From a virus (taxonomy: Duplodnaviria > Heunggongvirae > Uroviricota > Caudoviricetes): a stretch of 19,651 nt of DNA. Position numbers and translations under genes: made by a program. The stretch lies in IMG/VR virus record IMGVR_UViG_2563366883_000015; one strand, written 5' to 3'. The notes under the pieces are model-generated. The model was not told where the DNA came from. It searched no databases and saw nothing but the letters and a program-made list of their open reading frames with translations. Positions 55 to 18,912 of the stretch are shown in pieces (position 1 is the first letter of the stretch; each line of letters begins with the position of its first letter).

Positions 55-639
55 TTACTCCCTGACAGGGTTCGTAGGCCACTCAATATCAGGTGCAGTT
101 GATGTATCAACACGGTTCAGCAACACCCGATACTTTTTCCAGGCTTCCAGCAATGAGGTTTCTTCCTCCGTTGCGATTTCCAGATCCACAGCATCCTGAA
201 GTGGCGCAATATGCTCACTGGCTACCTGCATCAGGCTGTTTTTTGTTTCTTCCGCCTCTCGGATCCGGAACAGTTTTTCTGCTTCTGCATCTTTCACCCA
301 GGCTGTGCCGTTCCACTTCTGAAACTCCCCTTCCGGCGATAACCAGGTAACATTTTCCGGTAACGGACCGAGTTCAGAAATAAATAACGCGTCCCCTGAA
401 GCTACGTCATAAACCGTTTTACCCCGATGGTCTTCAACGAGATGCCACGATGCCTCATCACTGTTGAAAACAGCCACGAAGCCTGCCGGAATATCTGGCG
501 GTGCAATATCGGTACTGTTTGCTGGCAGACCTGTATGAGGCGGAATATATGCATCACCTTCACCAATAAATTCATTAGTTCCGGCCAGCAGATTATAAAT
601 TTTTATGGTCCGTGGTTGTTCACTCATTCTGAATGCCAT
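55..639 (-). CDS. tfa: Tail fibre assembly protein Tfa (lambda Tfa-like chaperone)
   Basis: 194-aa ORF beginning [24 protein letters not shown]..., recalled as near-identical to lambda Tfa. Start ATG overlaps the stf stop (TAATG). Confidence 0.9.
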
Positions 640-7911: not shown

Positions 7912-8709
7912 TCAATGAACGGTATCGAGCAGCTTTAACAGCTCAGGGAATCGGGATTCGAAGAAATGCGGCTGCGTCTCGCGCGGATTTGCGGGACTGG
8001 TGATGTTCTTGCCGAACATGCAGCCTTTCGCTGTCAGCGACCAGAATTTTTTGATGTTGTTAATCGCGGTACGGCTGTATCGTTCGCGCTGCTCGACGAT
8101 CCCCAGCTTCACCATCTGGTGATATGCCTGATTAGCTGTCAGGCGGATACCATACTGCTTCAGCAGTGCACTCAGTGACAGCGTGGGACGGCTTGAGCCA
8201 TCAGGCGCGTCAGCAGGAGCATCAATGGCATAGCGCGGTGCCAGATTCGGTAAGCCAACAGCCTCCTGGAGTTTCTGACAGGCACCAAGCACTGAAGAGT
8301 TAGACAGGTTTAACTCCCGGCGCATAAAGTCCAGCAGAATCACGCCAGCCTGCATCTTGTCAGCAGCCTGCCCGGATAATTTTTCCGATGCGCTGGTTAC
8401 CATATCGAAAGTACGGATCACCTTCAGATGGAATGACGGGCTGATCCACATTGCATAGGCATACACCAGTTCTTTGCAGACATACGTCCCCTGGTTATTT
8501 CCGCCACGAATAACGTTAACTGGCTCTATATTGACCGAGTTGCAAATCTGCAACTCGCTTATTAAACGTTCAGTTTGCTCATTGCGGAGCCAGAATGCAG
8601 GCTTATGCTTATCCAGAGAACCGGCAGCCCTGTGCAGATCGTTCAGGCTGTAACGCCCATAAGCATCACGACGAACTTCAATACCATCAATGACCATCAG
8701 ATTATTCAT
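7912..8709 (-). CDS. KilA-N domain protein (Bro/antirepressor-like)
   Basis: N-terminus MNNLMVIDGIEVRRDAYGRYSLNDLHRAAG...KPAFWLRN is KilA-N-like. Start placed at ATG 8709 with AGGAG 9 nt upstream. The ORF track extends to 8742. Confidence 0.75.
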   Translation of the reverse strand: MNNLMVIDGIEVRRDAYGRYSLNDLHRAAGSLDKHKPAFWLRNEQTERLISELQICNSVNIEPVNVIRGGNNQGTYVCKELVYAYAMWISPSFHLKVIRTFDMVTSASEKLSGQAADKMQAGVILLDFMRRELNLSNSSVLGACQKLQEAVGLPNLAPRYAIDAPADAPDGSSRPTLSLSALLKQYGIRLTANQAYHQMVKLGIVEQRERYSRTAINNIKKFWSLTAKGCMFGKNITSPANPRETQPHFFESRFPELLKLLDTVH

Positions 8710-8728
8710 ACTTCGTTTCTCCTCTTGA

Positions 8729-9118
8729 TCAGGCGGCTGCACCCGCCGTTTTCTCGTACTTACTGATAGTGATCTCGACCTTCCCTTCCGGGATAACCGG
8801 TCCCCACTCCACCAGCATTCTTTTCACCTGGCTGTCGTCTTCCCACACACCCGCGTGGGTCAGGGCGTCAAACAGCGCCTTGTTATAGTTGTCCAGATCG
8901 CGGATCCGGTTATCCGGAGGAAACAACACGATCTCCACTGAAGCAGGTGCCGACGTTGGTTTCGGCAGACGACGTAACTGCTCAACTATTGCTGTGCACG
9001 CCGCACTCTGGAATTTTCGCCCCGCCGCGCTTATCAGGCTCTTACCAGCAAATGCCCCTTTGTTGGGGTGTCGCCAGTAGGTGTTCACGCTGGGTGGAAA
9101 AGGCAGAATCAGCTTCAT
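8729..9118 (-). CDS. rusA: RusA-family Holliday junction resolvase
   Basis: 129 aa MKLILPFPPSVNTYWRH...IRDLDNYNKALFDALTHAGVWEDDSQV matches the RusA pattern. Start ATG overlaps the upstream stop (ATGA). Sequence differs from K-12 RusA. Confidence 0.85.
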   Translation of the reverse strand: MKLILPFPPSVNTYWRHPNKGAFAGKSLISAAGRKFQSAACTAIVEQLRRLPKPTSAPASVEIVLFPPDNRIRDLDNYNKALFDALTHAGVWEDDSQVKRMLVEWGPVIPEGKVEITISKYEKTAGAAA

Positions 9119-9441
9119 ACTTTCAGCCCCCTCTCATGTAACCAGTGGGCTGCACGCAGCCTGGCGTTTTCCTCACCAGCAAGCAGTGCGCGGATAATCC
9201 CGGCCACCTCGCTGTCGTCGTCCTTCACCGCGGTATGAAGCGTGATGCCCCGGGCCACGCCACGCTTTATCGTGATGACGCCTTTTTTCTCCAGTGCGCG
9301 AAGATGCTCCACCGCTGCATTCACTGAACGGTATCCCAGCATGGTAGCCACCTCCTGATTGGTTGGCGGGAAGCCACGTTCTTTCTGGTAAGAAATCAGC
9401 ATATCCAGCACCTGCTGCTGGCATTGAGTTAACGTCGTCAT
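9115..9441 (-). CDS. LexA N-terminal DNA-binding-domain protein lacking the S24 peptidase domain
   Basis: 108 aa from ATG 9441: MTTLTQCQQQVLDMLISYQKERGFPPTNQEVATMLGYRSVNAAVEHLRALEKKGVITIKRGVARGITL parallels the LexA winged-helix domain. No Ser/Lys protease region follows. Confidence 0.7.
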   Translation of the reverse strand: MTTLTQCQQQVLDMLISYQKERGFPPTNQEVATMLGYRSVNAAVEHLRALEKKGVITIKRGVARGITLHTAVKDDDSEVAGIIRALLAGEENARLRAAHWLHERGLKV

Positions 9442-9929
9442 TAAGCCCCCACGTAATTCCCTGACAGATACCACTCTTCACCCGATACAGCGCGCTTGCT
9501 GCTTTTCCGTAAACACCGCTCACGACGCGCAAGAAAATTGTTTCGCTCTTGCTGGGAGTGGCTTTCACGGAATGCCGCCATCCACACCGTTGCAGCACGA
9601 CGGTATAAGCCCCTGGACTCCAGTTCTTCCGCCTGGCGGGTCAGGCACAAAATCACCCGGGGATCGTTAGTGCCGACATAGAAATTGCGCACAGGTCTGG
9701 ATTCACGAACTGGTTGCGGTTCCGGCTCCTGCGGTATCTCAGTCAGCCGCGGGAAATGTCTGCGTGTATCCCCTTCACAACGGTGAGCCACACGCCCACT
9801 CTGACGTAACTTGCTTGCTGACTGCAGAACGCGCTGTCGTGAGTAACCTGCAAAAGCATCCGCAATGTCTCCGGAAGTACACCCCGGATGGGCTTCAATG
9901 AATTTCTGAACGTCATTCAAAAGACTCAT
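9441..9929 (-). CDS. Putative transcriptional regulator with C-terminal PerC/Pch-like motif
   Basis: C-terminal segment AEELESRGLYRRAATVWMAAF...NNFLARRERCLRK resembles the PerC-family core; ~90 aa of extra N-terminal sequence. ATG 9929 with AGGGGG upstream. Confidence 0.55.
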   Translation of the reverse strand: MSLLNDVQKFIEAHPGCTSGDIADAFAGYSRQRVLQSASKLRQSGRVAHRCEGDTRRHFPRLTEIPQEPEPQPVRESRPVRNFYVGTNDPRVILCLTRQAEELESRGLYRRAATVWMAAFRESHSQQERNNFLARRERCLRKSSKRAVSGEEWYLSGNYVGA

Positions 9930-9931
9930 GA

Positions 9932-10873
9932 TCACCCCCTGAATCCTGCCGGGATCTGGCTGTAGTCCACGTTGTCGTAACTGGCTTTGAAGTACGGGTC
10001 TTCGCGTTTTTCGGTGTACGTGCTGACGGACGGCGATAAGCGCAGGGAAAGCTCATCCCATTTTTCCCGCAGCTTCGACGGGCTGAGCACGTTACGGCAC
10101 CAGAACGGATCGCGACTGACGCGGCTGTACATCTCGCAGATTTGTTTATGAGTACGACCATCCTGCACACACATCAGGCGAATTTCGTTTGCCCAGGCTG
10201 TCCAGTTCGGTTCTTTGGGACGAACCACCTCGCCGTCACATTCGGCGGCATGCTCGTACAGGGCGATGATTTTTTTCCAGAGCCACTGTGCGCAGGTCAA
10301 ATCATCCTGCGTCCCCCACTGGCGCTTTTTAGGGCTGAATACAACCGCATCAGGATGGCGAGTTAAAAAATCCTGTTCAGCCGTCTGCGTGTCCGGTTGC
10401 GAAGCGTCCGGACGAGAAGTTTTTTTATCTGACGGATCATGTTTTGATTTTACTGACGGATCCCCACCAGATTCTGACGGGTGAAAACCCGCTTTTTTGC
10501 CAGATTTCGACGCATCAAATTTTGACGGGTCAGATTTTGATGCGTCAGATTTTGACGGGTCAGAATCTGACAGTTGAGAAAATGCCGCTGCCTGAAGCTT
10601 CGCAACGTTAAGCTGATAAACATTCGACGCATTGCGGTTACCCTGGCGACGCGCCCTACGCGTTAACCAGCCTTCTGCTTCCAGCCGTGCGATAGCCGTT
10701 CTGACGGTACTCATCCCCGCGCCAATCTGGCGGGCAATGGTTTCAATTGATGGCCAGCACACACCTTCGTCATTACTGAAATCAGCCAGGCGGGCCATAA
10801 TTGCCACGCTGGATAATTTCATGCCTGATGCAGCGCAACCATCCCATACATAGCCGGTTAATTTAGTGCTCAT
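9932..10873 (-). CDS. Phage replication initiator (N-terminal HTH domain, low-complexity linker, conserved phage replication C-terminus)
   Basis: 313 aa. N-terminal winged-HTH-like region ...SIETIARQIGAGMSTVRTAIARLEAEGWL, linker SDSDPSKSDASKSDPSKFDASKS encoded by DNA repeats, Trp/Cys-rich C-terminus. GAGG RBS. Confidence 0.8.
   Translation of the reverse strand: MSTKLTGYVWDGCAASGMKLSSVAIMARLADFSNDEGVCWPSIETIARQIGAGMSTVRTAIARLEAEGWLTRRARRQGNRNASNVYQLNVAKLQAAAFSQLSDSDPSKSDASKSDPSKFDASKSGKKAGFHPSESGGDPSVKSKHDPSDKKTSRPDASQPDTQTAEQDFLTRHPDAVVFSPKKRQWGTQDDLTCAQWLWKKIIALYEHAAECDGEVVRPKEPNWTAWANEIRLMCVQDGRTHKQICEMYSRVSRDPFWCRNVLSPSKLREKWDELSLRLSPSVSTYTEKREDPYFKASYDNVDYSQIPAGFRG
10445..10576. repeat. 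Iteron-like array of ~7 imperfect 15-16-bp direct repeats (consensus approx. CAGATTTTGACGGGT) inside the replication initiator gene; candidate ori
   Basis: Copies at approx. 10445, 10468, 10501, 10517, 10532, 10547 and 10562; the last four are contiguous. Same layout as lambda ori iterons within gene O. Confidence 0.5.
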
Positions 10874-10882
10874 GACCGACCT

Positions 10883-11221
10883 CTATTTCCCTGAATTTAC
10901 GACGAAACTGTTCGAGCGGGCTGAAGCACTCATGCTCATAGCCTTCGCGGAGGTAGATAACACGTTGTGTTTCCGGCTCCCAACGAATGACTCTGACGGG
11001 CACTCCGTAGTGATCTTTGAACCAGCGGTTAACTTGTCGCAAAGGACTGTCTCCTTCTGCCGGTTGAAATCACCCACAGCCCACTCTGCAAAGCTGTGGG
11101 TTACAATTTCCCTGTCACCTGGTACATTTACTGCATAGCAATACTCCACCTTCGCTTTTCCACCCGGTACAGGAAGCGCAATCAGTTGCGAGCGACGGTA
11201 GTGTGTTGTTAAACTGTTCAT
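10883..11221 (-). CDS. Hypothetical early-region protein
   Basis: 112-aa ORF whose start overlaps the upstream gene stop (ATGA coupling). C-terminal third is low-complexity, so it may be frameshifted or shorter. No family recognised. Confidence 0.35.
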
Positions 11222-11769
11222 GCGTTAGTTTCTCCACAGTCACGACACGCCACGGCGCCCGGAGCTGCACACTCGCGGGCGTCACTACTTTCTGAAACGC
11301 AAAAGATTTTGTAGACCAGTGCTGCATGCTCCTGCAGCTTCGAAATTGAGAGGTACAGCTCATCGTTAATTGCTGTCTTCTCATGCGGTTCCACTACACC
11401 GTCTTCAATTGCTGAACGAATCTGTTTTGAATAACTGCCGATCTGTTCAATGACTTCCAGCAGGCGTTGGTTGATATCGGCGTTGTCCACATCCTCGACA
11501 TCAGGAAGAGACACAAAGACGCCATTTGCAGACTGCGCCACAGCGTCAGCAATGAAGTGAGTTCCACCAGCACGTTGCAAAATCATTGCCCATCCCAGCG
11601 GGAAAATCTGATCGCCATCGGCACGAAGGCGGTTAAATAATGCGTTCTCTGTTACATCCAGCCAGTCAGCAGCTTCAGCGTCCCCCCCCGGCAACGCTGC
11701 GATAGTTTTTCTGACAGCTTTCACGTACCACTCAGGCTGTTTTTCTACTTTCCAGTGATGCTTACCCAC
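11218..11769 (-). CDS. Early regulatory protein, CII/YdaT-like (assignment tentative)
   Basis: 183-aa ORF at the position expected for the cII-equivalent upstream of replication genes; Cys cluster at the C-terminus. Family assignment is from memory and tentative. Confidence 0.5.
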
Positions 11770-11881
11770 GGTTCACCTCCTGTTCCTGTGGTTTAAACCC
11801 ATTCTGGTTTTGGCTAGATTGAAAACGTGCCGGATAAAGAATCTGCATTTCGCTGACTTCACCCTTAAAAAAATTGGCTAA

Positions 11882-12238
11882 ACGTTCTGCAAGCTCGATA
11901 GATGGAATCTGCTCCAGCCTCTCATGCCGCAAACCAAGAGCATTGCGGTCAAATGTACGAATGTTGCTGCGCAGGCTTATTTAACAATGCGTCTGGAAGC
12001 CAGTGCCGTTTCTGGTCAGGCGATGGTGTCGGACAATCAGGATTTAGGTTTTATTGTCGCCGATCAGAACGATACGCCGATCACGCCTAACGATCTCAAT
12101 AGCGTTATTCCTTTCCGTCTGGATGCAGCTGCGGCAGCCAATGTCACACTTCGCGCCTGGCCTATCAGTATTACCGGTCAAAAACCGACCGAAGCGCCGT
12201 TTAGCGCGCTGGGGTATTTACGCGTCGATTATCAATGA
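11882..12238 (+). pseudogene. sfmH: sfmH fimbrial adhesin gene, 3' fragment only (5' end replaced by phage DNA)
   Basis: Frame encodes a fimbrial-subunit C-terminal strand (...LGYLRVDYQ) directly upstream of sfmF. In-frame stop at 11879. The N-terminal two thirds of a ~325-aa adhesin are absent. Confidence 0.6.
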
Positions 12239-12248
12239 GGTACGGAGA

Positions 12249-12764
12249 ATGAGAAGAGTATTCTTTAGCTGTTTCTGCGGGTTACTGTGGAGTTCCAGTG
12301 GATGGGCAGCTGACCCTTTAGGAACGATTAATATCAATTTGCACGGTAACGTTGTTGATTTCTCCTGTACCGTAAACACAGCGGATATTGATAAGACGGT
12401 AGATTTAGGCAGATGGCCTACGACACAACTACTGAACGCTGGCGATACCACGGCACTCGTCCCTTTTAGCCTGCGGCTGGAGGGATGTCCTCCGGGTTCA
12501 GTTGCGATTTTATTTACGGGAACGCCGGCATCTGATGCCAACCTGCTGGCTCTGGATGATCCCGCAATGGCACAAACCGTCGCCATCGAATTACGTAATA
12601 GCGATCGCTCCCGGCTCGCACTGGGGGAGGCGAGCCCGACTGAGGAAGTTGATGCAAATGGCAATGTCACACTAAACTTTTTTGCCAATTATCGAGCGTT
12701 AGCCAGCGGTGTTCGGCCAGGTGTGGCGAAAGCGGATGCGATATTTATGATCAATTATAATTAA
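12249..12764 (+). CDS. sfmF: Type 1-like fimbrial minor subunit SfmF
   Basis: 171 aa from ATG 12249 with signal peptide MRRVFFSCFCGLLWSSSGWA/ADP and fimbrial C-terminus; GAGG 8 nt upstream. The ORF track starts further upstream at 12054. Confidence 0.85.
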   Translation: MRRVFFSCFCGLLWSSSGWAADPLGTININLHGNVVDFSCTVNTADIDKTVDLGRWPTTQLLNAGDTTALVPFSLRLEGCPPGSVAILFTGTPASDANLLALDDPAMAQTVAIELRNSDRSRLALGEASPTEEVDANGNVTLNFFANYRALASGVRPGVAKADAIFMINYN

Positions 12765-12766
12765 TA

Positions 12767-13399
12767 TTATATTAATTCATATAATTTGGCGTAGTCGATG
12801 AGCTCTACAATTGAATGCAAACCTAGCTTGCCATAAATATTAGATTTATGCGCGCTAACTGTTTTATTGCTAAGTAATAACTTATCGGCAATTTCTTTAT
12901 TAGATAATCCGCTGACCAGATAACGTAATATCGTCACTTCACGATTAGATAGCACAGTGATCGTTGAACTATTCGTACTACATTTATTGCTTTTTATATA
13001 GTTGAGCGTTTCGCTGGGAAAAAAAGTGTATCCGGAGAGGATCATCTGAACGGCATGAAAAATATCATTCTGATCATTGCATTTACTGACAAAACCGTTA
13101 GCACCAGCTTGTATCGCTCTGCCAGCATAAAAGCATTCTGATTTCGATGATAAAAATAATACTTTCACTGTGCTCTGGATTTGTTTGATCCTTTTCAGGA
13201 AGGTAAAACCGTCTGTTCCGGGCAAGTCTATATCCATAATGATTAAATCAACAGGACGGGTTCGGAGATAATCGATGGTTATGCGGTAATCATCCGTTTT
13301 CAGGACAATCTGCAATTCACTGTTTTTTTGCAACAGAACTTCAATAGACATTCTGATGATAGGATGAGTATCCATAATGATCACCGACGTTGGTTTCAT
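12767..13399 (-). CDS. fimZ: LuxR/NarL-family response regulator FimZ
   Basis: 210 aa from ATG 13399 (MKPTSVIIMDTHPIIRMSIEVLL...): receiver domain plus C-terminal LuxR HTH, in the expected position between sfmF and argU. Confidence 0.9.
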   Translation of the reverse strand: MKPTSVIIMDTHPIIRMSIEVLLQKNSELQIVLKTDDYRITIDYLRTRPVDLIIMDIDLPGTDGFTFLKRIKQIQSTVKVLFLSSKSECFYAGRAIQAGANGFVSKCNDQNDIFHAVQMILSGYTFFPSETLNYIKSNKCSTNSSTITVLSNREVTILRYLVSGLSNKEIADKLLLSNKTVSAHKSNIYGKLGLHSIVELIDYAKLYELI

Positions 13400-13582
13400 A
13401 GTTACCAGTCTCATAGGAGCGGACAATTTTCCGTTAGGGCGGTAAATTGTACTTTGATACATGAAAATACGGGTTTTCTTGATTCAGACGCGCAGCGGTG
13501 TGCGTTTGTTTGCCGCTATAGCGAAATAAATCAGAAAATCAGACGCGGTCGTTCACTTGTTCAGCAACCAGATCAAAAGCCA

Positions 13583-13610
13583 TTGACTCAGCAAGGGTTG
13601 ACCGTATAAT
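13583..13610 (+). promoter_or_regulatory. Sigma70 promoter for the tRNA-Arg gene
   Basis: TTGACT (13583-13588), 16-bp spacer, TATAAT (13605-13610), ~30 bp upstream of the tRNA 5' end. Confidence 0.6.
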
Positions 13611-13641
13611 TCACGCGATTACACCGCATTGCGGTATCAAC

Positions 13642-13718
13642 GCGCCCTTAGCTCAGTTGGATAGAGCAACGACCTTCTAAGTCGTGGGCCGCAGGTTCGA
13701 ATCCTGCAGGGCGCGCCA
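13642..13718 (+). tRNA. argU: tRNA-Arg (anticodon UCU), encoded CCA end; prophage attachment site
   Basis: 77 nt GCGCCCTTAGCTCAGTTGGATAGAGCAACGACCTTCTAAGTCGTGGGCCGCAGGTTCGAATCCTGCAGGGCGCGCCA with clear cloverleaf; anticodon loop CTTCTAA. Confidence 0.95.
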
Positions 13719-13733
13719 TTACAATTCAATCAG

Positions 13734-14897
13734 TTACGCCTTCTTTATATCCTCCATAATTCCAGAGTGGGACATATTTGGGACATTATCACCAAAAATG
13801 TCGTCTATTTTCCTCGCATGCTCTGTCAAATGATTAGGCGCAAGGTGAGCATACCTACGAACCATTTCTATGGACTCCCATCCGCCCATTTCCTGAAGCA
13901 CTGATAATGGGACGCCTGACTGAATCAGCCAGCTTGCCCAGGTGTGTCTGAGGTCATGGAAACGGAAATCTTCAATTCCTGCACGACGACAAGCTGATAG
14001 CCATGATGTCTTGCTGTCGATGCGCATCTTCCTGACCGCAGGCGTTGATGTTCCATCTGCTCGCTTAGCCGCCTTGGTATGTACAAACACCCATTTGTGA
14101 TGCTTGCCTATTTGATCACGCAACACTTTACAGGCGGTATCGTTCAGCGCCACACCAATGGCGCGGTTTGATTTGCTCTCTTCTGGATTCACCCAGGCAA
14201 CTCGTCGCTGCATGTCGATTTGTTGCCATTCCAGATTTATGATGTTCGACTTTCTCAGACCAGTTGCCAGCGCAAACTTGACGACAGATTTCAGTGGTTC
14301 GGGGCACTCATCAATAAGGCGTTTTGCTTCCTCCTTTTCCAGCCATCTGACTCGCTTGTTTCTGACCGCTGGTATCTTGATGACAGGCGCTTTTTCCAGC
14401 CACTTCCAGTCGCGTTCTGCAGCACGGAGAATGGCCTTTATCATGGCAAGATGCTTTGCCTTTGTCTGAGTTGATACTGGCTTTGGTTCATAAACAGGCG
14501 GTTCTTTACCTTTCCTGATGGCGGCCCGAACTTTCTGTTTCCATATTTCTTTCGTCTTTCTGTTATGCATTCTGCTTACAGCAGAGTAAATCTTTGCCTC
14601 CGAGATATCTTTAAGCCTTATACCCTCAAAATGTTCAAGCCAGAACTCAATCCGGCTTTTATCTGAATCGAGAGATTTTTTATCAGCCTTTTCCTCAAGC
14701 CATCTTAGGCAGGCCTCTTCAAAAGTGACATCAGGTAAATCCCCTAGCTTTTCTACTCGCCAGAGTTCTGCTTTTCGCTTGTCGTGCAACTCCTGAGCTT
14801 GCCGCTTGTCCTTTGTGCCAAGAGATTCCTTAATTCGTTTCCCGCCCGGGAGCGAATACGAGGCATACCATATTTCATTTCTGCGGAAGAGTGACAT
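13734..14897 (-). CDS. intD: Tyrosine site-specific integrase (DLP12 IntD-like)
   Basis: 387 aa [35 protein letters not shown]... with catalytic motifs ...HDLRHTWAS... and ...VRRYAHL...; GAGGA RBS. Confidence 0.95.
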
Positions 14898-15124
14898 TTT
14901 CTTTCCTCTGTTATGCCATCACCCGCGCTCACCTGGACAGTATGCAGCGGAGACTGAAGCGCCGCAATGCAGGCTTGCCGTGTTGTGAGGTAAGGAGATT
15001 TTGGCTTGGTTGGATCTTTACGTGTTGCCTGTAGGCGGCCTGTTCGTATCCAGTTGGTGGCGGTTGGTCTGGATATCTGAAGAAACTGACAGGCCTCATC
15101 GAGTGTGAGGCTGTATGGCTCCAT
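14753..15124 (-). CDS. xisD: Excisionase-like (Xis/AlpA-type HTH) protein; true stop may be earlier
   Basis: Start ATG 15124 ([35 protein letters not shown]...). The open frame overlaps the int start by ~145 nt. The ORF track extends upstream to 15208. Confidence 0.55.
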
Positions 15125-15429
15125 TATTTCACCTCTTGCTGTGTCATTGTTGAAAAATGGATAACAGCTCGTTGCTGCCAGACGATCCAACCGAGAGTCA
15201 TATCCCATGCCATGTATTCGTTATCGCCGTTTTTTGCTCTCCGACGATCTACTAAGTCACCGAAACGCTTTTCCATGAATAATTCATAGGCTTCGCGTTC
15301 ATCTGGCTCTACTTCCAGAGATACGAGTGCGATTTCATAAGCACGGCGCTCAATATCGTCTCGAACCTCTAGGCTGCTGATTCGTTCTTTGATTTCTTTA
15401 ATCAGTTCTTTATTGGTAAATGTGGTCAT
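15124..15429 (-). CDS. yfdT: Small early-left protein, YfdT-like
   Basis: 101-aa ORF MTTFTNKELIKEIKERISSLEVRDD..., translationally coupled to the upstream gene (TAATG). Length and position match my recollection of the yfdP-Q-R-S-T cluster. Confidence 0.5.
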   Translation of the reverse strand: MTTFTNKELIKEIKERISSLEVRDDIERRAYEIALVSLEVEPDEREAYELFMEKRFGDLVDRRRAKNGDNEYMAWDMTLGWIVWQQRAVIHFSTMTQQEVK

Positions 15430-15791
15430 TATGCTCCAGCCTCCGGTGCTTTTGGCATTACTGCCCAGTGAGTGATATTGACGTTTTCAAGGTCCCCGAC
15501 CTGAAATGTCCACTGCCATTCTCCGGTTTCTTTTTGTCCCCAGGTGTACCAGAGAGAACGCCAGCCAATCAGCCAGCCTTCTCCGTTAGCATCAAATAAC
15601 AGAACACTTTCATTTGCTGGTGGCAGTTCAGCTGACACTGGTATTATTTTGTTTTCCAGTGCCGCACATTTAGCTTCAAGCGCGTCGAATTTACGTAACA
15701 GGTACTCAGCATTTGTTTCATTCACTTTCAGATCTCGCGGTACACATTTCCCGCGAAGAAACCCTTCCATTTCGAAAACATTCATGCGCAT
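15429..15791 (-). CDS. yfdS: Early-left protein, YfdS-like (Trp-rich C-terminus, possibly DUF551-like)
   Basis: 120 aa MRMNVFEMEGFLRGK...WLIGWRSLWYTWGQKETGEWQWTF...ITHWAVMP; GGAG 9 nt upstream of ATG 15791. Confidence 0.55.
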   Translation of the reverse strand: MRMNVFEMEGFLRGKCVPRDLKVNETNAEYLLRKFDALEAKCAALENKIIPVSAELPPANESVLLFDANGEGWLIGWRSLWYTWGQKETGEWQWTFQVGDLENVNITHWAVMPKAPEAGA

Positions 15792-16318
15792 TTGCGTAAC
15801 TCCGATAAATCGTTAAAACGTTCCATAAACATCCCGTAGGCATGACCCGGTGCCAGTGGAATCACGTTGAACATCTCTGTTGCCGGGATGCCTTCCAGTA
15901 CAGGCCAGAAAGAGCCATCATCAAGCCCGAGATCGCGGCGTTCGGTTGCCAGCATGATGAGATCGGCATATTTCACGGGTGTACTCATAACTGGGGGTAA
16001 CCCGTATTTCTCACGGATTACGGCGTCTATTTTTTCTTCCATCCGTTTATAGTCAGGAAGAAGGCGTTTCAGTGGTGCGGGAATGTCCTGGCAATACGCT
16101 TCTGTTGCATCATGCATTAACGCTTCAAAAGCAAATTCCTGCGGCACCAGCTGGCTGCAAAGAACCGCATGTTGGGCGACGCTGTAGAAGTGCGAAAGAT
16201 GACCGGCAAAGCGACAGATATTTGAAAGGGAAACCGCGATATCGTTAATATCGATGTCGTCTTTATTTATCTTGTCATAATAAAAATGCTTCCCGGAAAA
16301 AGTTTTAATAAATGACAT
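15782..16318 (-). CDS. yfdR: HD-domain phosphohydrolase (YfdR-like)
   Basis: 178 aa from ATG 16318 (MSFIKTFSGKHFYYDKINKDD...). HD motifs ...VAQHAV... and ...LMHDATEAY...; GGAGAA RBS. The ORF track extends to 16345. Confidence 0.8.
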   Translation of the reverse strand: MSFIKTFSGKHFYYDKINKDDIDINDIAVSLSNICRFAGHLSHFYSVAQHAVLCSQLVPQEFAFEALMHDATEAYCQDIPAPLKRLLPDYKRMEEKIDAVIREKYGLPPVMSTPVKYADLIMLATERRDLGLDDGSFWPVLEGIPATEMFNVIPLAPGHAYGMFMERFNDLSELRKCA

Positions 16319-16411
16319 TTTGTTCTCCACGTATATGCACTGCACCGCGCTGAATTCTGGTAAAAGGAAGCCCTCACCATCCGGTGATTATTGAGTTAAT
16401 TACGTTTCCAT

Positions 16412-16433
16412 AAATGCCCCCGCAGGGGCATTT
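16412..16433 (-). terminator. GC-rich hairpin downstream of yfdQ (weak terminator candidate)
   Basis: AAATGCCCC-CGCA-GGGGCATTT perfect 9-bp stem 13 nt after the yfdQ stop; only a weak T-run follows. Confidence 0.3.
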
Positions 16434-16445
16434 GCAGTAATGAAA

Positions 16446-17270
16446 TCAGGCGGTGAAAGTACCAATAAAGGTTTCTACTTTGCTGTCTTTGAATTTCTCA
16501 ACAAGCAGATCACGAAATTCGTTAGCCATTTCTTCCTGCACCGCTTCCAGCTGAATAATGCGCAGAACCAGTACAGGACGATCGCCAGTGATAATGCTGA
16601 GGCGTAATTTAAACGGACGTTCTTTCAGACCTTCAAACGGAACGCATTTAAATTCAAATGCCACTGGCATAATGTCTTTGGTCTTCGCTTCGACAGACTC
16701 CATCAGGGAGCGTTTGCCGCTGAAGTCATTATCTTCAAAATCAGCGGTCTGGTTTGCTTCAATCGTGATTTTACGGACTGCCGCAGCCGCTTTTGTTGCT
16801 TGAATGGCGTCACCATTAGCATCAAAGCCCACAAGGTAGTCGGCCCAGTCTTCGATCCATTCTGCCAGTGACTTCTGGGAGTTACGCTCGCCGTTAACAG
16901 ACAACAGAGCAGAGAACGGTGCTGTCTTTTTCAGTTTGAGAGTGGCAGTGTTATCTGCGTGACCTGGTTCATCAATAGTACCCAGGTTAAGCACACTGAC
17001 GGCTCGCATATTATCGGCATCGATAAAGCAGCGGGTGCCTTCATCTGCAAGATCTTTAGAATAACGGGTAAAGTCATCGATGCTGGCAGTGGAAAGCGCA
17101 CCACGGAAACGGAAGCGATTTAAATTAAATTTTTCCAGATCATGAATGCGGAAATTCTCAGGCAATGCCACAGCATCGGCACCAATCTTACTGATAATTT
17201 CATTAACACCCTGAGCAGAAATAAGGGCATGGATTTGATTAATTGCGGTTGCGTCTAAGTTCTGAGACAT
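16446..17270 (-). CDS. yfdQ: YfdQ-like prophage protein (DUF2303-like)
   Basis: 274 aa [30 protein letters not shown]... with GTGAGGA RBS; ordered yfdP-yfdQ-yfdR as in the CPS-53 cluster. Confidence 0.75.
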
Positions 17271-17335
17271 AATAAGTCCTCACTATATAAAAATATTCAG
17301 TGATGAGAGAAATAATCAGTTTATTAAAAACGATA

Positions 17336-17698
17336 TTAATGACCTGCTGCGCGGAGTTTTCCGTCAGGTTCACCGGCAAGAGTCAGTAATTGTCCCTGGT
17401 CTTCCTGCAGAATAGTCAGGCGACCACCGCGATTGACATACATCGGCGTTTCGGTGGTGTCTTCTTCGGAAATTTTCCCGCGGTTAGTTGGGCGAACATA
17501 TGAGAGTTTGTGTTTGATTTTCACACGGTTCTCATCAAACGGTTCGATTTCCAGATTGAGTGAGACCTTCCCTTTGGTTTTCGTGTTCATCACACCGGAA
17601 GCGACCTCACTGAGAACTGCGCCGATTTTGGTTTCAAATACGCCGCCGTCCAGCTCCCCGATAAATGCCTGCACATCAGTACTGCGTTCGCTAGCCAT
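17336..17698 (-). CDS. yfdP: YfdP-like prophage protein
   Basis: 120 aa from ATG 17698 (MASERSTDVQAFIGELDGGVFETKIG...) with GAGGAG 7 nt upstream. The ORF track extends upstream to 17863 into GC-rich non-coding sequence. Confidence 0.6.
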   Translation of the reverse strand: MASERSTDVQAFIGELDGGVFETKIGAVLSEVASGVMNTKTKGKVSLNLEIEPFDENRVKIKHKLSYVRPTNRGKISEEDTTETPMYVNRGGRLTILQEDQGQLLTLAGEPDGKLRAAGH

Positions 17699-17739
17699 TT
17701 TGCTGCTCCTCATCATATCGACCCTGCAAGGTCGGTTGG

Positions 17740-18100
17740 TTTCTCCACAAAACAGAGAAGAACACCTGCGGTGGCAGCCGCCCGGATGGATTGGGTTATG
17801 AGCCCGTCGTCCGGTGATGCTCTTCTCTGTTTTGCAAAAAAGGACGGTACCAGCCGGAAGCAAGGGTACAAACTGGTACCGCCAGGACTACACACAGCAT
17901 AAAGTTGTGGTGCCGGGTGCCTCCCGGTGCCTGGCGAAGGTTGCACACCAGGCGGGTGGGTATCCACAGAAGGTCGACTGTCAGCCTCAACCTTAACCCG
18001 CGTGCGCTGAGCCGCATTCACCACAACGCTAAGGATTCTCTCTGGTTGAAAATACTTAGCTGTTATGTGCCTGCTTTTAGCCACATCAGGCGAGGTGGAC
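17740..18100. other. GC-rich, hairpin-dense non-coding block (candidate structured RNA or regulatory leader)
   Basis: No ORF with an RBS or sensible composition. 14-bp perfect stem CAAAACAGAGAAGA (17748-17761) / TCTTCTCTGTTTTG (17821-17834); 9-bp stem CGGTACCAG (17845-17853) / CTGGTACCG (17873-17881); further short stems. Confidence 0.35.
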
Positions 18101-18168
18101 CTGGTTATTCCCCAACAACAAGGATTCGGTTAATCTGGATATCCCCAACAACAATAAGAGTATTCAAT
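18101..18168 (+). repeat. Two tandem 34-bp imperfect direct repeats (core CTGGWTAT(T)CCCCAACAACAA) ending at the start of the downstream ORF
   Basis: R1 18101-18134 CTGGTTATTCCCCAACAACAAGGATTCGGTTAAT; R2 18135-18168 CTGGATATCCCCAACAACAATAAGAGTATTCAAT. An AGGATTC...CTGG motif also occurs at 18032-18047. Confidence 0.6.
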
Positions 18169-18684
18169 GTGATCGCTGAATTAACGGCAGCAATGACGGC
18201 TATTCGTGAAACAGCCCAGATTGCAAAACTAATGAACGAGGCAAAAACTCAAGCTGAAGTAAATGCGGCTATTGGTGAGCTGAACTCAAAGCTTGCGTCT
18301 ATTCAGCGCGAATGCGTGTCTCTCGTTGAACTGGTGGGCTCTTATCAAGAAATAAATGCTTCTCTCAAAGCTAAAATTGCAGAATTCGAAAACTTTGAGG
18401 CTCAGACGGAAGGCTATATCCTTAACCAACTTGAGTCGGGTACTTTTGTATACTCGAAGGAGGTAATCGTGAACGGTGGCAGCATAACCATGCATCTTTG
18501 CCCAAAATGTTTTGGACAAAAGATAGTATCGATACTTCAACCATTCCCGGTTAGCGAAGATGAGCTTTTTCATAAAAGCAGGTGCCTCCACTGTGAAAAT
18601 AAGTTTCTGATGAATAAAAATCCGGATTACGTATCGCCTCCATCCATTGAGGAGTTGTCCAGAAAACTTAACGGCAATCTGTAG
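18169..18684 (+). CDS. Hypothetical protein with N-terminal coiled-coil-like region and C-terminal CxxC...CxHC zinc-ribbon-like motif
   Basis: Frame open from GTG 18169 (AAGAG upstream) or ATG 18193 (MTAIRETAQIAKLMNEAKTQAEV...); stop TAG 18682-18684. Motif HLCPKCFGQK...(21 aa)...CLHCENKF. Convergent with cI. No family recognised. Confidence 0.5.
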   Translation: MIAELTAAMTAIRETAQIAKLMNEAKTQAEVNAAIGELNSKLASIQRECVSLVELVGSYQEINASLKAKIAEFENFEAQTEGYILNQLESGTFVYSKEVIVNGGSITMHLCPKCFGQKIVSILQPFPVSEDELFHKSRCLHCENKFLMNKNPDYVSPPSIEELSRKLNGNL

Positions 18685-18698
18685 ATTACTACTGTTGT

Positions 18699-18711
18699 GG
18701 ATATCCAGATT
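18699..18711. repeat. Right-hand inverted copy (GGATATCCAGATT) of a 13-nt sequence found in repeat R2 (AATCTGGATATCC, 18132-18144)
   Basis: Perfect 13/13 reverse-complement match, with similar ACAACA flank. The two sites bracket the ORF from ~25 nt before its start to 15 nt after its stop. Confidence 0.6.
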
Positions 18712-18722
18712 GCTAAAGAGCT

Positions 18723-18748
18723 AAGCGTCCTGTAGGGCGCTTTTTTGT
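18723..18748 (+). terminator. Rho-independent terminator for the zinc-ribbon ORF
   Basis: AAGCGTCC-TGTA-GGGCGCTT stem (one G-U pair) followed by TTTTTTG on the plus strand. Confidence 0.55.
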
Positions 18749-18912
18749 TGCTAACGAATCATCCTGGACTTCATATGCCCCAGGCGGCTACTTCGTGGGC
18801 GTCCTGCCTGTTCGTTTTTGACATTTACTGACTGCTTACGACACATGCACCGTGTTGCAACCAGATTTTGTTGTAATCCTGTAGTTGGTCTGGAACAAAA
18901 GATAAAATTAAA

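Follow-up and report, generated by a model that had tools for sequence, protein, structure and literature searches.

The principle that a replication origin lies inside its own initiator gene is textbook knowledge for the lambdoid phages (PMC7466680; PMC8022706). Lambda, P22, and L each carry their own repeats inside the initiator gene, and the initiator and the repeats that it binds differ together between lambdoid phages (PMC8022706). In vitro, lambda needs no iterons other than the two closest to the AT-rich tract (PMC7466680). The Stx phages, whose O genes likewise contain repeats of their own, have six iterons instead of four, so the copy number is flexible (PMC7466680).

The locus described here contains short direct repeats within a gene for an O-like replication initiator. 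It lies in a stretch of viral DNA of 19,651 bp, the whole of which is referred to below as the window. The original prediction was that these repeats form a lambda-like origin within the initiator gene, and this was supported by comparison of the repeats, the A/T-rich flank, the homologues, and the O-type domains. We consider it likely, on the basis of these comparisons, that the repeats are part of a lambda-style origin of a lambdoid (SfII/SfIV/CPS-53-type) prophage, located where the prophage's own O-like initiator gene encodes the linker. A search of the literature on this type of initiator and repeat (SfII/SfIV/SfV, yfdO, CPS-53/KplE1, iterons), which did not take in the SfV genome paper, found no description of it. 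The SfIV genome paper mentions a "replication module" only, and neither the SfV record nor the summaries of the SfII and SfIV matches include an origin feature. The features of the locus, with the evidence used to define them in brackets, are as follows.

9932 to 10873, minus strand: O-like replication initiator gene, 313 aa (open reading frame; full-length PHROG 391 match; phage and E. coli matches)
10583 to 10873, minus strand: N-terminal winged helix-turn-helix, about residues 1–97, presumed iteron-binding domain (Pfam HTH_36)
10501 to 10575, minus strand: five head-to-tail 15-bp iterons, of which the promoter-proximal one (10561–10575) is degenerate (Tandem Repeats Finder, motif search, unit consensus, codon restriction)
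10483 to 10500, minus strand: spacer, coding strand GGCAAAAAAGCGGGTTTT (an A6 run and a T4 run), variable among relatives
10468 to 10482, minus strand: isolated iteron, coding strand ACCCGTCAGAATCTG, 33 bp from the array (motif search; consensus in 71 loci)
10429 to 10463, minus strand: two proximal iteron-like GATC boxes, coding strand GGATCCGTCAG and TGATCCGTCAG, 24 bp apart
10411 to 10458, minus strand: A/T-rich stretch with an A-rich coding strand, candidate DNA-unwinding element (nearest-neighbour stability minimum)
10040 to 10375, minus strand: C-terminal domain, residues 167–278, homologous to the C-termini of lambda O and phi80 gp15 (BLASTP)

Tandem Repeats Finder reported a repeat with a period of 15 and 4.3 copies at 10501–10564, with the consensus CAGATTTTGACGGGT, and also gave a period-30 reading. 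A motif search allowing up to three mismatches found seven matches in the window, where 0.58 was expected by chance, and none of 200 shuffles reached seven. Six of the seven fall within 10468–10569. Five of these are on the plus strand (starting at 10468, 10501, 10516, 10531, and 10546), and the single minus-strand match in this interval is a reflection of the dyad within the repeat unit. The seventh match, at 12173, is weak and is the only one in the window beyond the initiator repeats. A degenerate fifth abutting unit, CAGAATCTGACAGTT, is present at 10561–10575. Two half-copies, CTGACGGATC, were found at 10429–10438 and 10453–10462 (0.06 expected), both with GATC. All the repeats lie inside the minus-strand open reading frame at 9932–10873, at about residues 99–148 of 313.

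The original prediction described about seven copies, four of them contiguous, which is a fair account of the four to five contiguous units, one separate unit, and two half-copies that we counted. The interval that it assigned to them, 10445–10576, does contain repeats, but the half-copy at 10429–10438 falls just beyond its start. Translation of the open reading frame gave the linker peptide ...LSDSDPSKSDASKSDPSKFDASKSGKK..., made up of S-D-x-S-K pentapeptides, and this is the low-complexity peptide that had been quoted as the product of the repeats.

A profile of 309 units from 71 loci gave the coding-strand consensus TCTGAC-SCR-TCAAAA. The best-conserved bases are those of the dyad TGA-N4-TCA, followed by the A-rich bases. 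Perfect TGA-N4-TCA sites start at 10430, 10523, 10538, and 10553, which is four of the 11 in the whole window, and near-perfect sites start at 10454, 10475, and 10508. Together, these make seven dyad sites, four at 15-bp spacing and then three at distances of 33, 22, and 24 bp. Conservation is highest at the three proximal sites, and the tandem array is the variable part. The isolated iteron, with the consensus TTTTgACCCGtCAGAATCTGG across the 71 loci, is far better conserved across genera than is the number of tandem units. The abutting 15-bp spacing is tighter than that of lambda (about 20–24 bp) or phi80 (21 bp), an observation that counts against a lambda-style reading.

An adjacent AT-rich element, for which the original prediction had proposed a search, is present directly promoter-distal to the repeats. 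It is the least stable 45-bp stretch of the gene, at 10411–10458. This stretch overlaps both GATC boxes and ends in an A7 run, and the 40-bp window of the gene with the lowest GC content (32.5%) is at 10420–10459. The two GATC sites are at 10435 and 10459. The promoter-proximal GATC box, which was the one scored, encodes Asp as GAT, and hence contains GATC, in 71 of 71 loci; its Ser is TCA in 100% and its Val is GTA in 96% of these loci. Across the whole window, the A/T-rich stretch is modest, ranking only within the least-stable 8%, and this too counts against a lambda-style reading. Neither a DnaA box nor an IHF site was noticed when the sequence was read by eye, and no promoter-like site was found inside the repeats.

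The array as a whole is a long imperfect palindrome, and the repeat region folds much better than shuffled sequence (z = -4.9 as RNA and z = -3.6 as DNA). We read both as by-products of the dyad in each unit. Taken alone, such folding, together with the A7 run at the end of the element, could indicate that the constraint is on the mRNA and not on double-stranded DNA, with the region acting as a structured element or, at the A-runs, as a signal for translational pausing or frameshifting. We regard this explanation as highly improbable. Tandem dyads fold automatically, whatever their copy number, and it is the dyad half-sites and the A-tracts that are conserved, while the pairing partners change as units are gained and lost. 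The repeat region had no match among the Rfam families, and a conserved product in an alternative frame was not evident. Two open reading frames in other frames do run over the repeats (10444–10611 on the plus strand and 10450–10632 on the minus strand) and were rejected as candidates, being open only since the unit lacks stops in those frames. A weak terminator-like hairpin on the antisense (plus) strand at 10478–10491, to which the spacer contributes, was likewise set aside, as it is explained by the iteron and a T-tract and its stem is not conserved.

Another explanation is that the repeats encode a disordered linker that is prone to slippage and selected as a flexible peptide, with the DNA having no function of its own. 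The Ser/Asp/Lys-rich peptide is typical of such linkers, and the copy number varies freely in steps of five residues. In an alignment of 32 proteins, the number of S-D-x-S-K pentapeptides per protein ranged from 0 to about 10, and three homologues (P0017, P0032, and P0069) had no tandem array, while the motif following the pentapeptides, GGDPSV..DPS, was nearly invariant. Among 78 near-identical viral contigs (>96% identity), the protein has 313 aa in 63, and the lengths in the others include 303, 308, 318, and 323 aa. Two E. coli alleles, one shorter by 30 bp and one longer by 45 bp, differ exactly within the array, and the number of units in species-level loci is one to seven. The proposed comparison of repeat number in related prophages gave a favourable result: homologous initiator genes from across the Enterobacterales contain the repeats, with the copy number shifting in 15-bp (5-aa) steps.

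To compare constraint on the DNA with constraint on the peptide, codon use in the repeats was set against codon use elsewhere in the same genes at 71 non-identical loci from many species of Enterobacterales. TCT encodes the first Ser of the unit in 83% of cases, versus 9% elsewhere in the same genes, and TCA encodes the second in 86% versus 16%. Lys is AAA in 216 of 217 cases (61% elsewhere), Asn is always AAT (34/34), and Glu at the last position is GAA in 59 of 60 (55% elsewhere). Ala at the middle position is never GCT (0/123), a codon that makes up 24% of Ala codons elsewhere. Where the amino acid changes, the replacements preserve bases of the unit: Phe in place of Ser is encoded by TTT, Pro in place of Ser by CCT, Thr in place of Ser mostly by ACT, and Asn in place of Lys by AAT. 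The units within an array (through concerted evolution) and the related loci are not independent, so these counts make the independent observations look more numerous than they are; comparison with the flanking domain of the same sequences serves as the control for shared ancestry.

The same pattern extends into the conserved linker core next to the repeats. The main codons of its conserved residues are TTT for Phe, GAT for Asp, and TCA for Ser (fraction 1.00 each), GTA for Val (0.96), and CCG for Pro (0.94). The mean fraction of the commonest codon was 0.89 over nine columns of the linker core compared to 0.52 in the N-terminal domain (60 conserved columns; Mann–Whitney p = 1.6e-5). Synonymous sites are strongly constrained in the repeats and the adjacent core and are saturated in the flanking DNA-binding domain. 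A 60-nt consensus, TTTTgACCCGtCAGAATCTGGcGGgGATCCGTCAGTAAatTCAAaacaaGAtCCAtcAg, is recognisable from Escherichia to Yersinia, Providencia, and Edwardsiella. Since the codons of the repeats are near-fixed, the replacements keep the DNA motif, and synonymous sites in the flanking domain are saturated, these data indicate that selection acts on the nucleic acid and that the region is a cis-acting element, beyond a mere low-complexity linker. By the same comparisons, the repeats are genuine, and it is as DNA rather than as protein that they are conserved. A peptide-level explanation is very unlikely for these reasons: it fails the synonymous-site test, the amino acid changes keep the bases, and the dyad of the unit is meaningless for a peptide.

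The initiator itself matched the profile phrog_391, "replication initiation O-like," over residues 1–313 (E = 5.5e-135). Its N-terminus, a winged helix-turn-helix at about residues 23–97, matched Pfam HTH_36 (E = 4.2e-11; 42.9 bits against a cut-off of 25), with weaker Pfam matches to GntR, MarR, DnaD_N, and RP-C, the last of these at 17.6 bits, under its cut-off of 24.4. Comparison of the winged helix with solved structures gave weak MarR-type matches only, and none of the NCBIfam profiles scored over its cut-off. BLASTP aligned residues 70–277 to lambda O (31% identity, E = 3e-26) and residues 167–278 to phi80 gp15 (35% identity, E = 4e-25). The N-terminus had no significant BLASTP alignment to either protein and no Pfam match to Phage_rep_O (PF04492) at E ≤ 0.01. 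By these matches, the N-terminal domain lies outside the lambda O family, an observation that also counts against a lambda-style reading. An initiator of the iteron-plasmid type (Rep_3, RepA/pi/TrfA) was considered and rejected: there is no Rep_3 match, and the repeats are inside the gene rather than outside rep.

The initiator family is large, with 2,355 proteins at E < 1e-5. The gene is 98–99% identical to genes annotated as "replication protein O" or "primosomal protein" in the Shigella phages SfII and SfIV, and several induced E. coli phages carry it at 98–99% identity as well. It is present in about 1,580 of 5,426 complete E. coli genomes. Its K-12 counterpart is the truncated yfdO of CPS-53.

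Across loci taken from one genome per species, residues 1–168, which comprise the DNA-binding domain and the repeats, occur in combination with three or more different C-terminal domains. These loci came from Escherichia, Klebsiella, Citrobacter, Enterobacter, Pantoea, Erwinia, Yersinia, Rahnella, Providencia, Proteus, Edwardsiella, Morganella, and others. The shared N-terminal module gives way to the alternative C-terminal domains just past the conserved core, at about residues 160–170. This arrangement indicates, at the level of sequence, that the DNA-binding domain and the repeats travel as one module, which parallels the joint divergence of initiator and repeats among the lambdoid phages (PMC8022706). 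Where the DNA-binding domain is at least about 50% identical, relatives retain a unit of the TGA-N4-TCA type but with a different centre, as seen in locus L104 (TGAACGTTCA), phiP27 (TGAACCGTCA), and the Edwardsiella/Erwinia group (TGACCCC(T/C)CAA and TGAGGGGTTAA). Relatives with 45% identity or less also have repeats immediately behind the winged helix, at the corresponding position of the gene, but of unrelated sequence. The period of these repeats is 24 in Min27, 21–24 in Salmonella phage S107, 24 in Vibrio phage D67, and 15 in the Serratia locus L140, which has a GGCTCAC core; SfV orf39 has repeats of its own. The type of initiator is paired with the type of repeat, as expected of an origin and its initiator (PMC8022706).

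Selection at the level of DNA does not by itself specify an origin. The repeats could instead be cis-acting sites with another role, such as operators (autoregulatory or roadblock) bound by the initiator or another repressor, a Dam/SeqA switch, or a recombination patch at the module boundary. The boundary between the N-terminal and C-terminal modules does lie just past the conserved core, the GATC sites have been kept, and a methylase gene often lies alongside. Against this, the repeats share one orientation, sit between the domains of an O-type initiator, have an A-rich flank, and are replaced by different ones in divergent relatives, a combination that is the signature of a lambdoid origin (PMC8022706; PMC7466680). 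There is also no further copy of the motif near the promoter side of the gene, the match at 12173 being weak, and a pure recombination patch would have no need of a repeated dyad. We consider such other roles unlikely, and prefer the reading of the repeats as a lambda-style origin.

Such an origin could work as follows. Dimers of the N-terminal winged helix would bind the TGA-N4-TCA dyad of each unit, occupying the four or five abutting 15-bp units and the three better-conserved proximal ones (33, 22, and 24 bp apart). The resulting nucleoprotein complex would then destabilise the adjacent A-rich stretch of about 45 bp, which bears the two GATC sites, and the lambda-O-like C-terminal domain would recruit the host helicase machinery. 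We infer binding by the initiator, unwinding, the role of GATC, and DnaB recruitment by analogy and from the pattern of constraint. The A-rich stretch is probably sensitive to Dam methylation or SeqA because it carries two GATC sites, of which the promoter-proximal one is kept in 71 of 71 loci. The tandem array may be dispensable or modulatory since some homologues lack it. Recruitment of the helicase would be the weakest step of this mechanism, and is left unexplained by it because no helicase-loader gene follows the initiator.

The surrounding genes are those of the replication module of a lambdoid prophage, as judged from their sequences. Upstream of the initiator are a DUF4222 gene and a CII-like gene (ymfL), and the open reading frame at 11218–11769 matches the Pfam family Phage_CP76 (CII). 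The collinear prophage in FDAARGOS_1059 has the order cI, cro, ymfL, DUF4222, and initiator, which places the initiator in the early-right operon, downstream of the cII-like gene. Downstream are a PerC/YfdN-like gene (9441–9935), a gene whose product has a LexA DNA-binding domain, and RusA. Nothing recognisable as a P, DnaC, or DnaB gene follows the initiator here, and the SfII/SfIV-type phages have no loader there either. In the relatives L093 and L140, the initiator gene does have a P-like open reading frame after it. An adjacent gene for a phage adenine methylase is frequent among relatives and is absent from this window.

This copy of the prophage is rearranged. Positions 9438–11794 match the FDAARGOS_1059 prophage collinearly, while 12482–18816 are inverted relative to it. 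At the junction, at about 11922–11924, a truncated cro-like gene is joined to the 3' part of sfmH, and no complete E. coli genome spans this junction. The initiator gene and its repeats are intact, with 100% identity to the copy in FDAARGOS_1059. In this prophage, the origin is probably silent because the inversion cuts the replication operon from the immunity region and the early promoter.

If confirmed, these findings would locate the origin for the replication module of thousands of prophages of E. coli, Shigella, Klebsiella, and other enterobacteria, including the serotype-converting phages SfII and SfIV and the K-12 cryptic prophage CPS-53. The module is now annotated merely as a "helix-turn-helix domain-containing protein." The locus is a clean natural case of overlapping constraints on protein and DNA, and the 15-bp copy number is a simple typing marker for related prophages. 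It also raises the question of how an O-type initiator loads helicase without P. The established view of lambdoid replication is unchanged. More speculatively, the locus could represent a widespread and uncharacterised class of enterobacterial phage origin, a proposal that we hold only tentatively. Such origins would have a drifting number of abutting 15-bp dyads and an essential core of three conserved proximal sites. They would be gated by Dam/SeqA through GATC in the unwinding region, often with a methylase next door. A lambda-O-type C-terminus lacking a P-type loader would recruit host DnaB/DnaC directly or through an unrecognised partner, for example the YfdN-like protein.

The GATC sites invite comparison with origins outside the lambdoid phages. 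In oriC and P1 oriR, conserved GATC sites are found in the A/T-rich region beside the initiator sites. The present locus differs from these in having only two GATC sites.

Among phages, the HTH_36-type initiators (phiP27 L17, Min27 O, SfV orf39, S107, and D67) are alike in the fold family of the N-terminal domain and in having tandem repeats at about nucleotides 260–400 of the gene. In phiP27, the N-terminal domain is 62% identical and the unit, TGAACCGTCAAAATC, is related. The distant members, at 45% identity or less, have unrelated repeats of 21–24 bp. They also differ from the present initiator in their C-terminal domains and in their downstream partners, which are a DnaC-like loader or a primase/helicase. 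SfV was considered as a reference phage and rejected, as orf39 has a different N-terminal variant and its own repeats.

Gene 18 of P22 and L differs in its repeats, which are about 20 bp in P22 and 11 bp in L. P22, L, and the Stx phages encode a helicase (gp12) or P, unlike this locus. Gene 15 of phi80 has the same arrangement, with a homologous C-terminus (E = 4e-25) and four annotated gp15-binding repeats of period 21 inside the gene (GenBank). Its N-terminus and its repeats, of the CCGAAAACGGGAAAA type, are unrelated, and a P-like gene, gene 14, lies downstream in phi80. Membership in the phi80 gene 15 family, which was considered because the homologue P0076 is named "Replication protein 15," was rejected since only the C-terminal domain is homologous.

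Lambda differs in having Phage_rep_O at the N-terminus of its initiator, where HTH_36 is found here, and its units are 18–19 bp at a spacing of about 20–24 bp rather than 15 bp and abutting. Features of the present locus that set it apart from lambda are the polymorphic copy number, the two GATC boxes in the A-rich region, and the lack of P downstream. The likenesses to lambda concern the overall plan. In both, the origin (a putative one here) is in the middle of the initiator gene, between the N-terminal DNA-binding and the C-terminal domains, and the repeats encode the linker; the lambda record has four annotated iterons at the equivalent place in gene O. The repeats of both are in the same orientation, with internal dyad symmetry and an A-rich centre or flank (PMC7466680). 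In each case the coding strand is the A-rich one, on the side away from the promoter, the gene comes after a cII-like gene, and the C-terminal domains are homologous (E = 3e-26). Finally, the three proximal sites are the best conserved here, resembling the need in lambda for the two iterons nearest the tract.

Further features of the window are as follows:

98-296, minus strand: IS009, an Rfam match.
7912-8742: KilA-N gene, an intact ORF of 276 aa.
9441-9935, minus strand: gene for a PerC/YfdN-like protein of 164 aa, the next gene after the initiator.
10478-10491, plus strand: terminator-like hairpin, CGGGTGAAAACCCG and then T6, located in an inter-iteron spacer and antisense to the initiator gene.
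13642-13715, plus strand: tRNA gene.

No gene for lambda P, DnaC or DnaB comes after the O-type initiator of the window; among the downstream genes of comparison loci L001-L005, L093 and L140, a P-like ORF is present in the relatives L093 (Erwinia) and L140 (Serratia). The C-terminal domain of the window initiator is homologous to that of lambda O, yet the window initiator has no P gene downstream. The N-terminal 100 aa of the PerC/YfdN-like protein encoded next correspond to phrog_23071, a family with no known function. In the close relatives SfII, SfV, FDAARGOS_1059, L001 and L002, a 650-bp phage N6-adenine methylase (dam) gene is situated between the PerC/YfdN-like gene and a gene with a LexA DNA-binding domain. 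This dam gene is missing from the window at the corresponding site, 9438-9441 (compared against L169 9860-10507), and SfIV likewise has no dam gene (PMC3851460). Its absence may matter since GATC sites are conserved in the putative origin.

Within the putative origin, the stem of the antisense hairpin is not kept in relatives and, therefore, the hairpin is probably incidental. In K-12, the match to yfdO of the cryptic prophage CPS-53 is limited to the 709 bases at the stop-codon end (E. coli hits H45-H47). The K-12 gene retains the repeats and the C-terminal domain, but its DNA-binding domain is short of about 78 residues at the N-terminus. Thus, K-12 carries an orphan iteron set beside a truncated initiator.

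The early-right operon of the prophage terminates in a truncated cro-like gene joined to the 3' portion of sfmH, which is annotated as fimH and is followed by sfmF, fimZ and tRNA-Arg. The junction lies at about 11922-11924, inside the segment 11794-12482. Compared to the collinear prophage of E. coli FDAARGOS_1059, the 6 kb at 12482-18816 (int ... yfdT-yfdP) is inverted, and a comparison with 5,426 complete E. coli genomes found none that spans the junction. The arrangement reflects either an inversion whose two ends fall in the cro-like gene and in sfmH, or a misassembly. In FDAARGOS_1059, a tRNA-Arg gene adjoins fimZ and the integrase gene, and the KilA-N gene has an internal stop, in contrast to the intact window copy.

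The replication protein of SfV, orf39 (L174 4306-5124), differs from the window protein in its N-terminal winged-helix variant and carries its own repeats of the GGTAGTGCAGGAGATTCAC type. The same 24-residue tail, REDPYFKASYDNVDYSQIPAGFRG, ends both proteins (window 9935-10010 compared). This makes the initiator gene a fine-scale mosaic. Loci L097 and L100-L106, from Providencia and Proteus, have TCTTCGTCGCAGAATTCTGACGAA just past the conserved core. Close in sequence to it are ttcgtcagagaattctggcgaatcctctgac of lambda (L168 1160-1190) and tcttcgtccgagaattctgacgaatcctctgac of phi80 (L167 8775-8810), both located on the right-hand side of the AT-rich tract. This likeness suggests a right-arm origin element that is common to, or exchanged among, otherwise different initiator families.
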